Source: Candidatus Saccharimonadota bacterium (GTDB lineage: Archaea; Nanohalarchaeota; Nanosalinia; Nanosalinales; Nanosalinaceae). Taken from it: a stretch of 32,000 nucleotides of DNA. The stretch's first letter is position 1; the number at the start of each line of letters is the position of its first letter. The notes under the pieces were generated by a model. It was not told where the DNA came from. It did not search any database and saw only the letters and a list, made by a program, of their open reading frames with translations. The stretch covers positions 660,001-692,000 of the forward strand of contig CP012986.1 in the NCBI GenBank assembly GCA_001761425.1, given 5' to 3'. A program made the position numbers and the translations under genes. Shown in pieces: positions 1-32,000 of the stretch.

Positions 1-42
1 CATTCGAGAATTTGATGCTTCTTCGAGCAAATACGATGTGTT

Positions 43-125
43 TGCGGGGGAGAAGATTCGAACTCCTGAACCCCTACGGGACAGGATCCTAAGTCCTGCG
101 CCTTTGACCACTTGGCTACCCCCGC
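43..125 (-). tRNA. tRNA-Leu (anticodon UAG)
   Basis: Minus-strand cloverleaf read by eye. Acceptor GCGGGGG/CCCCCGC, D arm GCC-AAGTGGTCAAA-GGC, anticodon arm CAGGA-CTTAGGA-TCCTG (anticodon TAG). Long variable arm typical of Leu, T arm AGGAG-TTCGAAT-CTTCT, discriminator A, no encoded CCA. Confidence 0.85.
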
Positions 126-300
126 AAGATTTTGATTGGAAAACTGTGTGTAGCGTGGTGAGTAAGGCCTTATACAGGCTTTCAAAACTCGGGTATGTTT
201 GTTTTTTACAGTAAAGGTTTTTAATGGGCCTGTTTTCGTCTCAGTCTGTAGGTTTTCGGTGTCCGGGAAATGGATTTAAGTTTGGGTTCGAAGGAGTTAT

Positions 301-960
301 TTGTCAGGTGTTATTTTGCTGAATTATCAAGATTTCGAGGTGTTCTGGGATGGTCATGCCTCTGTTAGAGTTGAGGATGAAGATTTTACAGTCGCTGTAG
401 ACCCGTGTAGTAAGGTTGGAACCGGTTTTACGGCGGATATCGTTCTTTTGACTCACGGTGATACAGGTCATTTCGATCCTGAGGCCTTGGAACAGGTTAA
501 GGGGCCTAGGACTGTTCTTGTTGCACCTGATTCTATGAGGGACGAGGATTTCCCTGTTAGAGATGTCGAGTTTATCTCTGAGGGTGAGCATCTGGATATT
601 TACAGTGTTGAGATCGAAGCCGTACCGATGTTCAACGAGGATCATTCTAGAGACAGTGGTGTCGGCTACAGGTTCGTCATGAGAGATAAGGCCTTCTACG
701 TGGCGGGGGACACCGGGCTTCAGGATGAGTTGAGGGAGCTTGAGAACCGTGTGAACGTTGCCTTTCTGCCTGTGGATGGTGTCTATACTATGGATGTTGA
801 GGAGGCGATCAAGGCTGCTGTAAAGATCAAGCCAGATATTGCAGTGCCGTATCACTATGGAGAGCCTTTTTTCGAGGATTTAGAGGTTGATCTCCGGGGT
901 TTTGAGGCTGAACTGGTTGAGAGGAATATCGGCGTTGAAGTCCTTGACCCGGAAAAATGA
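301..960 (+). CDS. MBL-fold metal-dependent hydrolase (UPF0173-like), paralog 1
   Basis: 219-aa ORF with TTG start. Contains LTHGDTGHFD (relaxed HxHxDH motif), AGDTG and VPYHYG blocks, collinear with the next gene. Acidic composition. Confidence 0.75.
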   Translation: MSGVILLNYQDFEVFWDGHASVRVEDEDFTVAVDPCSKVGTGFTADIVLLTHGDTGHFDPEALEQVKGPRTVLVAPDSMRDEDFPVRDVEFISEGEHLDIYSVEIEAVPMFNEDHSRDSGVGYRFVMRDKAFYVAGDTGLQDELRELENRVNVAFLPVDGVYTMDVEEAIKAAVKIKPDIAVPYHYGEPFFEDLEVDLRGFEAELVERNIGVEVLDPEK

Positions 961-988
961 TTAATGCTTCGAGGCCTAAAACTTTGAT

Positions 989-1681
989 GTGATATCTATG
1001 AGAGGTTCTCATGAATTTGAAACTGTAGAGGTCGACTGGATCGACCATGCGACGGTAAAACTTAAAGACAGCGACGGTCTGGTCGTCTACATTGACCCGT
1101 GGAGCGACGTATTTGATGGTGAACAGGAGAAGGCAGATGTCATAGTCTCGACGCACGATCACTTCGACCATTTCGACAGGGAAGCGATAAAGGCCTTGAA
1201 GCAGAAAGATACGGTCCTTATTCTTACAGAGGATTCGGAGGACGATGCACCGGAAGAGATGGAGACAAAAGTTATCAGCCCAGGAAATTCGGTAGAGGCG
1301 CACGGTCACAGCTTCAGAGGTGTAGAGGCCTACAACGTTGACAAGTTCAGGGAGCCTGATACGCCTTTCCACCCTAAAGGCCTGTGTACAGGAGTTATCT
1401 TTGAACTCGACGGCTTAAAGTTCTACCATGCTTCAGATACAGATCCTATCGAAGAGATGGAGAAGTTATCGGAGGAAAAAATCGATGTAGCCTTCATGCC
1501 TGCCGGTGGACACTACACCATGGATCAGGAGGAAGCTATCGAAGCAGTGAAGAAGGTGAGGCCTGGAAAAGTCGTTCCGATACATTACGGCTACGTAGAC
1601 GAGACCACATGTGATACAGAGAAATTTGAAGAAGACATAACAGAGGGGACGGATTCAGAGGCCTTCATACTCGAAAACTGA
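989..1681 (+). CDS. MBL-fold metal-dependent hydrolase (UPF0173-like), paralog 2
   Basis: 230-aa ORF. STHDHFDHFD is a clean HxHxDH zinc motif, with ASDTD and VPIHYG blocks parallel to paralog 1. The track start 989 is GTG; the in-frame ATG at 998 is an alternative. Confidence 0.8.
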   Translation: MISMRGSHEFETVEVDWIDHATVKLKDSDGLVVYIDPWSDVFDGEQEKADVIVSTHDHFDHFDREAIKALKQKDTVLILTEDSEDDAPEEMETKVISPGNSVEAHGHSFRGVEAYNVDKFREPDTPFHPKGLCTGVIFELDGLKFYHASDTDPIEEMEKLSEEKIDVAFMPAGGHYTMDQEEAIEAVKKVRPGKVVPIHYGYVDETTCDTEKFEEDITEGTDSEAFILEN

Positions 1682-1699
1682 AGGCCTCTACTAATTTTT

Positions 1700-30931: not shown

Positions 30932-30984
30932 GGGAGAGGATTTGTGTAAAAGCTGATTTAAACCTGATTTTAGTTATAGAGGTT

Positions 30985-31551
30985 ATGTCTGATGATGCTT
31001 TGAGCAGGATAGATTTTCCGGACAGAAAGTATACTTTGAAGCAGAAAGCTGTGAGGAATGCGTATAAACTGTATGATTCTGAAGAAAATGAGGTTCTCAG
31101 TGCCAAACAGAAACTTTTCAAGGTGAAGGAGGAGTTCCCGTTCACTGATCCTGAAGGTAATGAGGTGTTCAGTGTACAGGCCGAACAGGTACTTGATATA
31201 GCAGGGGATTACGCGATCATCGATTCAGGTACTGATGAGAAACTGGCTGTACTGAAGAAGGAGTTCACTTTTCTTGTGCAAAAATGGAAAATACAGGATT
31301 CTGAAGGGAATTTTCTCGCAAAGATAGAATCTCGTGGAAAGCTCATGGGCCTTTTCAGGGCGTTTTCGGATCTGGCTGATATATTCCCTCATAGATATAC
31401 TATCGAAGATTCGAATGGAGATCAGATAGGAATTATACAGGGCAAGTTCAGCCTGAGAGACAGGTATGTCATCGAACTTGATGAAAACGCTGAAAACCGT
31501 GAGGCCATCATGGCTGCTGCGGTGACAATCGACGCTCTTGAAGGCAACTAG
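30985..31551 (+). CDS. LURP-one-related / YxjI (tubby C-terminal-like) family protein
   Basis: 188 aa. Repeated beta-hairpin-like pattern: YTLKQKAV.. YKLYDSEENEVLSAKQKLF.. FPFTDPEGNEVFSV.. WKIQDSEGNFLAKIE.. YTIEDSNGDQIGII. Typical of LOR/DUF567 proteins. Confidence 0.6.
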   Translation: MSDDALSRIDFPDRKYTLKQKAVRNAYKLYDSEENEVLSAKQKLFKVKEEFPFTDPEGNEVFSVQAEQVLDIAGDYAIIDSGTDEKLAVLKKEFTFLVQKWKIQDSEGNFLAKIESRGKLMGLFRAFSDLADIFPHRYTIEDSNGDQIGIIQGKFSLRDRYVIELDENAENREAIMAAAVTIDALEGN

Positions 31552-31556
31552 AGGCC

Positions 31557-31700
31557 TTAATCTAGCTCTTCTATCTCCTCTCCTTTTTCCGGATTATCTA
31601 CTGTCGGATGTTCGCCAGTTCTGTCGTAACGCCAGTGGTTCTCCGCAGTTTTCCGGTCCGGGAATATGTATCCGCATTCAGTGCATCTGAACTAGCTCAT
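31557..31700 (-). pseudogene. small C2H2-type zinc-finger ORF interrupted by TAG at codon 3
   Basis: ATG-AGC-TAG is followed by 44 sense codons (FRCTECGYIFPDRKTAENHWRYDRTGEHPTVDNPEKGEEIEELD) and TAA. No other start codon precedes the first Cys. Confidence 0.3.
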
Positions 31701-31741
31701 AATGGAATCTTTCCTGACTTTAGGCCTGGTTTAACACTTTT

Positions 31742-31999
31742 TTACTGAGTTCTTTTTTCTGCCTGCATTTTTTCTATCATTTCGACTCTGGCGTTGTAAT
31801 CTAGATCGGAGTATTCGAAGGTCTTTTTCAGTGTTTCCAGGGAAGGTAGGTGTACATTTACTGGTCCACGGGCTATTGGCTCATTTCTGTCTGTCTCCTG
31901 TTCAAGAAGTCTGTGAACTTCTTTTGCATCGTCGTTTCTCCAGTTAAAGGCCTTTCTGTAGTCTGTTATAACGTCTACGAAGGCCTCTGGTGCTTCCAC
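31742..31999 (-). CDS. hypothetical protein, probably 5'-truncated by the window edge
   Basis: 85 codons are open to the window end; the apparent GTG start at 31999 may be internal. No motif recognised. Confidence 0.5.
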   Translation of the reverse strand: MEAPEAFVDVITDYRKAFNWRNDDAKEVHRLLEQETDRNEPIARGPVNVHLPSLETLKKTFEYSDLDYNARVEMIEKMQAEKRTQ

Positions 32000-32000
32000 T

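Follow-up and report, generated by a model that had tools for sequence, protein, structure and literature searches.

We analysed a stretch of 32,000 nucleotides (contig CP012986.1, positions 660,001 to 692,000; hereafter the window) in which the palindromic hexamer AGGCCT recurs at dispersed positions. Gene calls in the window were based on open reading frames (ORFs), and about 90% of it is coding. The predicted proteins are acidic. One of them is a class II-type ribonucleotide reductase (RNR) whose nearest relatives in a species-level genome collection were all Nanohaloarchaeota, the best being Ca. Nanosalina sp. VS9-1 at 84% identity. Judged by its protein sequences, the organism is a nanohaloarchaeon (DPANN). 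The features needed for the following analysis are:

1 to 32000, both strands (palindrome): array of 149 dispersed AGGCCT sites.
25716 to 28661, + strand: class II-type RNR gene, 981 aa, used for the orthologue comparison (Pfam; codon alignment).
25984, 26375, 26687, 26803, 26930, 27098, 27317, 27520, 27781, 28019 and 28113, + strand: the 11 AGGCCT sites of the RNR gene (codon alignment).

With 149 exact occurrences on the + strand, AGGCCT ranks first among all 4096 hexamers in the window, ahead of T-rich words. Base composition predicts 6.8 occurrences at the measured G+C of 46.95%, and a first-order Markov model predicts 7.7. The original prediction, made by eye from the sequence, had put the count at about 150, the random expectation at 6-7 and the G+C at about 45%, and the positions it listed were right to within a few bases. 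The excess lies above the roughly 15-fold over-representation that marks the class of highly iterated palindromes (HIPs), and corresponds to 4.7 sites per kb (about 4,700 per Mb) at a mean spacing of 215 bp. When eight loci dense in the motif (the trait-bearing loci introduced below) were pooled, 550 sites were found in 150 kb, or 18.3x expectation. Markov models of higher order expected 23.8 (order 2), 72.5 (order 3) and 141 (order 4) sites in the window. Orders 3 and 4 are circular and uninformative because AGGCC (n=171) and GGCCT (n=175) are almost confined to the full motif. The hexamer check proposed earlier thus gave a large excess at low orders, but at maximal order, the form proposed, it carries no information; it was dropped as a control and replaced by codon shuffles and by orthologues lacking the trait. 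Among the 212 GGCC tetramers in the window, 149 were flanked by A and T, and each of the 15 other NGGCCN words occurred 0-16 times. The five one-mismatch relatives named beforehand as rare, a few tens in total, sum to 44.

The sequence flanking the hexamer showed a weak symmetric preference (-1 is not T, and -3/-4 lean to T) that was the same in coding and non-coding DNA, and composition was at background from ±5 outward. The flank bias described earlier is therefore real but weak. A dispersed repeat element, either a miniature inverted-repeat transposable element (MITE) or a repetitive extragenic palindrome (REP), is excluded, as there is no conservation beyond the hexamer core and the flanks are near background. 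The exact window sequence was found twice, on a 1,125,078-bp contig of JGI metagenome 3300010222 and in a Logan assembly of SRR2630167. Over 23 kb these copies match completely, with zero single-nucleotide differences to polarise. An assembly artefact is excluded, since two independent assemblies give the same sequence.

To place the window among its relatives, we compared about 64 related RNR loci. A first set comprised 32 genome loci, and a metagenome scan added 34. The density of AGGCCT among them was roughly bimodal: about 17 loci had at least 2 sites per kb, and most had fewer than 0.5. We refer to the dense loci as trait-bearing and to the others as trait-lacking. Seven of the 32 genome loci were trait-bearing (L001 from VS9-1, NZ_CP180230.1; L002, L005, L007, L017 and L023; and L027 from M3_22, CP046106.1), with 2.2-4.5 sites per kb and enrichments of 10-26x, and the remaining genome loci had 0-0.9 per kb. 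Among the 34 metagenome loci, L157 reached 5.0 per kb, ten or so more exceeded 2.5 per kb, a few lay at 1-2 per kb, and the rest were near zero. A comparison with related genomes, as suggested in the original prediction, thus recovers the enrichment in other nanohaloarchaeal loci, but only in some lineages. None of 100 bootstrap RNR trees united the trait-bearing taxa in a monophyletic group. The trait-lacking L012 grouped with the trait-bearing L027 (86%), the low-density L006 grouped with L001 (79%), and in a larger RNR tree L001 (4.0 per kb) stood beside L155, L156 and L168 (0-0.26 per kb). The trait is roughly on/off among these loci, and even on this single-gene tree, whose deep nodes are weak, several gains or losses are needed. 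Such lability among close relatives fits the gain and loss of a specific gene.

Some observations on these loci stand apart from the distribution of the trait. Several trait-lacking relatives (L008, L009, L032, L156, L171, L186 and L187) are almost devoid of GGCC, with, for example, 10 in 23 kb (L008, L009) or 0 in 7.4 kb, which suggests strong HaeIII-type restriction pressure in the very clade in which other members accumulate AGGCCT. The contig of L012 (JBLGBK010000010.1) is labelled 'MAG: Colwellia polaris' and has a nanohaloarchaeal RNR neighbourhood (82% identity to the window protein); it is probably mis-binned. We also looked for viral contigs with dense AGGCCT and found, among the matches listed, only chance matches, tandem repeats or sequences not from halophiles. 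Three unrelated IMG/VR contigs (L035, L076 and L111; G+C about 36-39%) share a common local element with AGGCCT triplets 14-42 bp apart, and their proteins are not halophile-like.

We then examined the coding context of the motif. AGGCCT occurs at 4.52 per kb in coding and 5.31 per kb in non-coding DNA of the window. Within genes it lies in all three reading frames, as had been claimed: 18 sites read AGG-CCT (Arg-Pro), 39 read xAG-GCC-Txx and 70 read xxA-GGC-CTx (x-Gly-Leu). All ORFs of at least 300 bp contain at least one site except 30985-31551, which has no context that would permit one. Shuffling synonymous codons within genes left 21.0±4.1 sites (maximum 32) against the 127 observed (z=25.6), and shuffling codon order left 8.1±2.8. 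The codon-preserving shuffle proposed as a possible refutation therefore does not reproduce the enrichment. Occurrence in all frames and in non-coding DNA, not driven by codon usage, is a further property of HIPs that AGGCCT shares.

Positions were considered permissive if the protein allows AGGCCT through synonymous codons alone, that is, at Arg-Pro, at [Lys/Glu/Gln]-Ala-[Phe/Leu/Ser/Tyr/Cys/Trp] and at Gly-Leu preceded by a residue with an A-ending codon. In the window, 126 of 170 permissive positions (74%) have the motif. Among the loci of the first scan, occupancy ranged from 53 to 81% in the 7 trait-bearing ones besides the window and from 1 to 26% in all others. The odds of occupancy relative to the shuffle expectation are about 20, i.e. 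an S of about 3. Codon choice depended strongly on context, and did so only in trait-bearing genomes. In trait-bearing loci Gly is encoded by GGC in 77% of x-Gly-Leu contexts vs 23% elsewhere (20% and 27% in trait-lacking loci), Ala by GCC in 74% of motif contexts vs 20% elsewhere (28% and 26%), and Arg by AGG in 81% of cases before Pro vs 22% elsewhere (17% and 23%). The peptides are affected as well, with 12.3-18.6 permissive contexts per 1000 codons in trait-bearing loci and mostly 7-13 in trait-lacking ones. Third-position spectra at unoccupied permissive sites showed a modest shift that is not decisive for hypermutability of a particular C. Together these results support an enrichment that is DNA-level and frame-independent and is no by-product of codon or amino-acid usage. 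The earlier claim that the constraint acts on DNA and not on protein agrees with the shuffles, the context-bound codons, the density in spacers and the sites that changed an amino acid, which are described next.

In a codon alignment of the RNR gene, the trait-bearing genomes share AGGCCT at columns 971, 1087, 1601, 2065 and 2511, among others. Trait-lacking genomes have the same residues at those columns, written with the codons GGA, GCA, AGA or CGN. Other sites came at the cost of a residue: the site at 25984 (column 268) needed a Lys->Ala replacement, those at columns 1214 and 2351 (26930 and 28019 in the window) needed Asp/Glu->Gly, and further site-creating replacements were Ala->Gly at column 2660 and Thr->Leu at column 1289. 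Between trait-bearing genomes, 4-8 of about 10 RNR sites coincide, a count in which inheritance and re-creation at the few permissive positions are inseparable. Four-fold synonymous sites between the same genomes are only 35-59% identical, vs 29-37% at random, and are thus near saturation. That sites are shared despite near-random synonymous positions implies a force still acting in each trait-bearing lineage. Conservation of sites beyond background divergence, another property of the HIP class, is thus seen in RNR.

The RNR neighbourhood has peculiarities of its own. A gene for NrdR (zinc ribbon and ATP-cone; 25251-25694, + strand) lies directly upstream of the reductase and is overlapped by an antisense ORF (25221-25682, - strand) that is longer, so that a longest-ORF rule would choose it. 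In L023, L025, L026, L179 and L187 the RNR match is split by about 1 kb, or its span is about 0.4-1.1 kb too long, after about residue 354. Such a pattern would fit an intein or some other element inserted at a conserved point. The RNR of the window is uninterrupted.

To characterize the force behind the enrichment, we compared AGGCCT with its neighbour words in pooled DNA of the same gene neighbourhoods, of which 150 kb came from trait-bearing and 309 kb from trait-lacking genomes. The observed-to-expected count ratio (O/E) of AGGCCT was 18.3x and 1.25x, respectively. For the six inner one-mismatch word pairs, the O/E in trait-bearing relative to trait-lacking DNA was 0.87-0.98. The deamination neighbours were not depleted (0.87 for AGGTCT/AGACCT and 0.92 for AGGCTT/AAGCCT, with transversion neighbours at 0.88-0.98), so that the signature of very-short-patch (VSP) repair which the original prediction had proposed to look for was absent. 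Variants at the outer positions 1 and 6 were enriched, 3.6x for GGGCCT/AGGCCC and 1.4-1.5x for the C and T variants. HIPs likewise have one-nucleotide deviants biased to their outer positions. Outside AGGCCT, GGCC was neutral in trait-bearing DNA (740 vs 756 expected) and depleted in trait-lacking DNA (1156 vs 1733). With the inner neighbours at baseline and only the full motif raised, the pattern fits a fixation bias on the whole site (selection, biased conversion or uptake) and not a single mutational path. Any change that completes the exact hexamer is favoured, overriding codon preference and sometimes the amino acid.

The sites are also spaced non-randomly, as HIPs are. On the 32-kb scale of the window, gaps between sites had a coefficient of variation (CV) of 0.70, where randomly placed sites give 0.99±0.08 (P<0.0005) and frequent hexamers taken as controls 1.0-1.3. 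Long gaps were under-represented in the window, and among pooled gaps those shorter than a tenth of the mean numbered 17 vs 52 expected. The permissive peptide contexts themselves are randomly spaced (CV about 1). Their occupancy depends on the distance to another site, being 46% below 30 bp, 62% at 30-60 bp and about 71% beyond (Fisher p=3e-5). Interference below 30-60 bp points to the footprint of a reader or to a one-site-per-stretch process, and is not predicted by a site-autonomous mutational bias.

Since two copies of the palindrome are mutually complementary, close pairs can form stems. The five pairs in the window that are at most 25 bp apart all lie at ORF 3' ends or between convergent genes, have stems of 6-11 bp, and in three cases (1659/1682, 16377/16397 and 18896/18912) are followed by a T run. 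These pairs, together with two single sites at stop codons, are:

1659 to 1687, + strand: close pair 1659/1682, 11-bp stem across the TGA of ORF 989-1681, then a T run; -18.1 kcal/mol.
12178 to 12196, no strand: closest pair (13 bp apart), in the spacer between convergent ORFs 11600-11995 (+) and 12213-12956 (-).
16377 to 16402, no strand: close pair 16377/16397, 10-bp stem then TTTTT, between convergent ORFs 15796-16356 (+) and 16435-17361 (-).
18896 to 18917, + strand: close pair 18896/18912, 11-bp stem across the TAG of ORF 18027-18911, then a T run.
29264 to 29294, - strand: close pair in the last 40 nt of ORF 29254-29919 (-).
5739 to 5744, no strand: single site overlapping the TGA of ORF 4507-5739.
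31552 to 31557, no strand: single site directly after the TAG of ORF 30985-31551.

Across 15 trait-bearing loci, 13 of 33 pairs at most 25 bp apart (39%) lay within -30 to +40 nt of an ORF end, a zone that makes up 6.7% of the sequence and holds 5-7% of wider pairs (p=9e-8). For solitary sites beside a stop codon the excess was only marginal (6 vs about 2.5 expected, p about 0.04). The four examples of sites abutting stop codons given in the original prediction are right, but the general association it drew from them is marginal and mostly an effect of close pairs. A generic scan for intrinsic terminators performed no better than on shuffled sequence and missed the AGGCCT-pair stems, whose loops exceed 8 nt. 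The close pairs are hairpin-capable elements at gene 3' ends and candidate terminators at most.

The remaining features of the window include an intron-containing tRNA gene:

8263 to 8602, + strand: tRNA-Trp(CCA) with a 267-nt intron (8301-8567) at the canonical 38/39 position (ARAGORN with introns allowed).
8496 to 8501, no strand: AGGCCT site in the tRNA-Trp(CCA) intron (ARAGORN and sequence).

The site at 8496 had already been assigned to a tRNA-Trp intron, and it does lie inside this one. The gene was missed by default ARAGORN and by an Rfam gathering search, and was found only with long introns allowed. Given its length, and by analogy with introns of tRNA-Trp in other archaea, the intron might hold a box C/D guide RNA. 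Elsewhere, two tandem paralogous genes of the metallo-beta-lactamase fold (301-960 and 989-1681, + strand; Pfam Lactamase_B_3) were identified. The word GDGCHC is strongly depleted in the window (14 vs 57 expected), and is depleted also at L001, L005 and L007. This word is methylated in the nanohaloarchaeon SVXNc (Ca. Nanohalococcus occultus), so that a restriction-modification system of a similar kind may act here. GDGCHC depletion and AGGCCT enrichment showed no consistent correlation across loci. The window is also poor in CGCG (32 vs 97), GCGC (24 vs 97) and CTAG (O/E 0.39).

Behind the AGGCCT array stands a fixation bias that acts on DNA, is specific to the palindrome and is still at work; it shows local interference, and close relatives either have it or lack it. 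Our favoured explanation, to which we give an even chance, is that a lineage-specific DNA reader, probably linked to methylation, recognizes AGGCCT as a HIP-type site throughout the genome, and that fixation bias keeps the motif near saturation in one labile subset of Nanohaloarchaeota. Trait-bearing lineages would encode a dimeric reader of AGGCCT that is missing from their relatives. By analogy with HIP elements, the likeliest candidate would be a solitary StuI-type (AGGCCT) DNA methyltransferase together with a partner that reads the (methylated) site, and this partner would act in recombination, repair or DNA exchange. Alleles carrying a site would be fixed preferentially, through selection or biased gene conversion. 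One site would serve a stretch of DNA, with a second within about 30-60 bp adding little. The close pairs, being mutually palindromic, would apparently have been co-opted as hairpins at gene 3' ends.

Several points weigh against this explanation. Searches of all window ORFs with Pfam and NCBIfam found no methyltransferase, restriction endonuclease, Vsr/Mig enzyme or other reader, a motif regex scan of about 0.9 Mb of related nanohaloarchaeal loci found no such gene, and no gene of the RNR neighbourhood co-varies with the trait. Because no methyltransferase was found in the window or the related loci, the mechanism stays one that we infer. An M.HaeIII sequence, compared with 5.8 billion proteins, matched only close HaeIII homologues and no nanohaloarchaeal enzyme. 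Single-molecule real-time (SMRT) sequencing is poor at detecting 5-methylcytosine. The only nanohaloarchaeal methylome in the literature searched, that of SVXNc, which is not known to carry the AGGCCT trait, consists of GDGCHC alone; the strain has two Dcm-like enzymes, one of them without an assigned motif (PMC10266531, PMC11001535). The phylogeny is that of one gene, RNR, with weak deep nodes. Under-dispersed gaps were clear in 4 of the 8 loci tested (the window and three others), and the other four, in which they were not, have gaps of 1.4-2 kb. Finally, the data do not discriminate between natural selection and biased gene conversion.

A more specific possibility, which we raise only tentatively, is that AGGCCT is a functional mark of 'self' or of exchange in a DPANN symbiont, i.e. 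a methylated signal like that of HIPs or uptake signal sequences (USS), read in DNA exchange, recombination or repair. The nanohaloarchaeal cytoplasm has been proposed to be possibly connected to that of the host (PMC11001535). If this were true, the mark would be strong enough to have rewritten codon choice and some amino acids across a whole 1.1-Mb genome, and the on/off relatives would let phylogenetic profiling find the responsible genes and so provide a handle on HIP1-type function.

We also weighed other explanations. An uptake or exchange signal of the type of USS and DNA uptake sequences (DUS), operating without methylation, would need nothing but molecular drive, with AGGCCT fragments preferentially imported or recombined between nanohaloarchaeal cells. 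We regard it as rather unlikely, even though even spacing with local interference, the equal favour shown to every motif-completing mutation and the close inverted pairs at gene 3' ends, as known for USS/DUS, would all fit it, and a role as uptake signal has now been proposed for HIP1 too (bioRxiv 10.64898/2026.06.24.733823). A 6-bp palindrome at 4.7 per kb is much shorter than known uptake signals and about 5 times denser, a hexamer discriminates poorly against foreign DNA, and no uptake genes were identified here. To our knowledge, no sequence-specific competence has been described in archaea. The palindrome would also suit a dimeric DNA binder, and an abundant chromosomal protein of the nucleoid-associated, condensin-loading or histone-positioning type, under ordinary selection and without methylation, could account for the interference by a footprint of 30-60 bp and for the under-represented long gaps in the window. 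This too is unlikely in our view: known architectural proteins accept degenerate sites whereas the enrichment here is confined to the exact hexamer, an occupancy of 74% that costs amino acids is more than coverage would require, and rapid on/off switching between close relatives would be unusual for core chromatin.

Repair-driven mutational bias of the Dcm/Vsr type would make the motif a neutral side effect: a 5-methylcytosine methyltransferase marks AGGCCT, and a Vsr- or Mig-type T:G enzyme converts AGGTCT or AGGCTT to AGGCCT. This mechanism is the accepted cause of the mild CCWGG excess in E. coli, archaeal GGCC methyltransferases are known that pair with T:G glycosylases (M.MthTI with Mig.MthI), and such a bias would give both a DNA-level enrichment regardless of frame and an on/off pattern that follows gene presence. 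It predicts a depletion of deamination neighbours that is missing (0.87 and 0.92 vs 0.88-0.98 for transversion neighbours), and it does not predict the enriched outer-position variants, the interference at 30-60 bp or the sites that arose via transversions and amino-acid changes. Known VSP effects are moreover far weaker than 20-fold. We leave this bias only a small probability. It is very improbable that the signal acts in RNA, as AGGCCU in transcripts of either strand serving a ribonuclease, an RNA-binding protein or a hairpin. Nearly all sites are transcribed, given that about 90% of the window is coding, and close pairs form stable 3'-end stems, but single sites cannot fold into a structure, the density is the same in spacers, a site lies in the intron, and close pairs within genes are disfavoured and not used. 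Both the palindromic form and the symmetry of the flank preferences point to a site that is read in double-stranded DNA. There is hardly any room for the view that no real feature exists and that the array is a codon or amino-acid by-product, a MITE/REP repeat, or an assembly or linker artefact. Amino-acid content does cause a rise, but a modest one (21 sites in the synonymous shuffle vs 8 in the codon-order shuffle), and the shuffles fall 6-fold to 16-fold short. The flanks are essentially random, two independent assemblies agree, and at least 17 other loci from different studies carry the motif, at orthologous in-frame positions. The shuffles, the second assembly, the RNR alignment and the flanks thus refute this view.

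We found no earlier description of AGGCCT over-representation or palindromes in archaea, or in the methylation literature on Nanohaloarchaea and Nanosalina, in the searchable literature; the original prediction was likewise aware of none for this kind of archaeon. The cyanobacterial HIPs have been puzzling for three decades, and their function is only now being linked to methylation-dependent uptake and recombination. AGGCCT provides a second, independent HIP-like case, found in a different domain and in a genome no larger than about 1.1 Mb. Its density lies above that reported for HIP1, it leaves a measurable footprint in protein sequence, and it switches on and off repeatedly between close relatives. 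These relatives constitute a natural comparative experiment in which the machinery should be identifiable from the genes whose presence follows the trait. The skew in codon and peptide content is relevant to Nanohaloarchaeota phylogeny, binning and codon models. As a simple k-mer, the hexamer can also serve to mark a subset of these uncultured symbionts, and its enrichment predicts an unusual StuI digestion or methylation phenotype.

Among known systems, restriction avoidance is what Type II targets normally undergo. For AGGCCT, a StuI-type target, trait-bearing genomes show the opposite sign, whereas their trait-lacking relatives behave as usual, with GGCC at an O/E of about 0.7 and almost absent in some. 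A Chi-like hotspot, which is an oriented, strand-skewed motif, was rejected, as AGGCCT is its own reverse complement and has no orientation. The CCWGG excess of E. coli (Dcm and Vsr) is similar in that a methyltransferase-type palindrome is enriched and not avoided, but the enrichment here is about 20-fold, not mild, and the T-containing neighbours are not depleted. With USS of Haemophilus and DUS of Neisseria the array shares its genome-wide, frame-tolerant distribution, its even spacing and a possible fixation bias (molecular drive), as well as inverted pairs at gene 3' ends (13 of 33 close pairs vs 6.7%, p=9e-8). USS and DUS are non-palindromic, 9-12 nt long and found about once per kb, with a known competence receptor; AGGCCT is a 6-nt palindrome at 4.7 per kb with weak flanks.

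The best fit is to the HIPs of cyanobacteria, one of the analogues named in the original prediction. HIP1 (GCGATCGC) has one-mismatch variants biased to its outer positions, which Elhai linked to methyltransferase cores (PMC4390886), and those of AGGCCT concentrate at the outer positions too. HIP abundance tracks cognate methyltransferases, and HIP1 density is 300-2,700 per Mb (PMC4390886). Selection conserves HIP1 sites, whose spacing departs from random (Xu et al. 2018, PMC5861425), transformation and recombination increase up to 100-fold with methylated HIP1 (bioRxiv 10.1101/2024.09.10.611283), and HIP1 abundance co-varies with DNA-uptake genes (bioRxiv 10.64898/2026.06.24.733823). Like HIP1 and the alternate cyanobacterial HIPs (Elhai 2015), AGGCCT is a short GC-rich palindrome, over-represented tens of times in all frames and in spacers independently of codons. 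As with those elements, it is conserved beyond background, has outer-position variants and non-random spacing, and is patchy between relatives, some of which have different motifs or none in the cyanobacterial case. It is not HIP1 proper, since the word differs from GCGATCGC and the host is a nanohaloarchaeon, not a cyanobacterium. It differs from HIP1 in occurring in DPANN archaea, in being a 6-mer with a GGCC core where HIP1 is an 8-mer with a CGATCG/GATC core, and in being denser (about 4,700 vs 300-2,700 per Mb). AGGCCT thus has every feature of the HIP class that we tested; a cognate methyltransferase is part of the HIP picture, and the corresponding reader here is a predicted one. To these features the nanohaloarchaeal array adds near-saturation of the permissive positions and a measurable change in peptide content.

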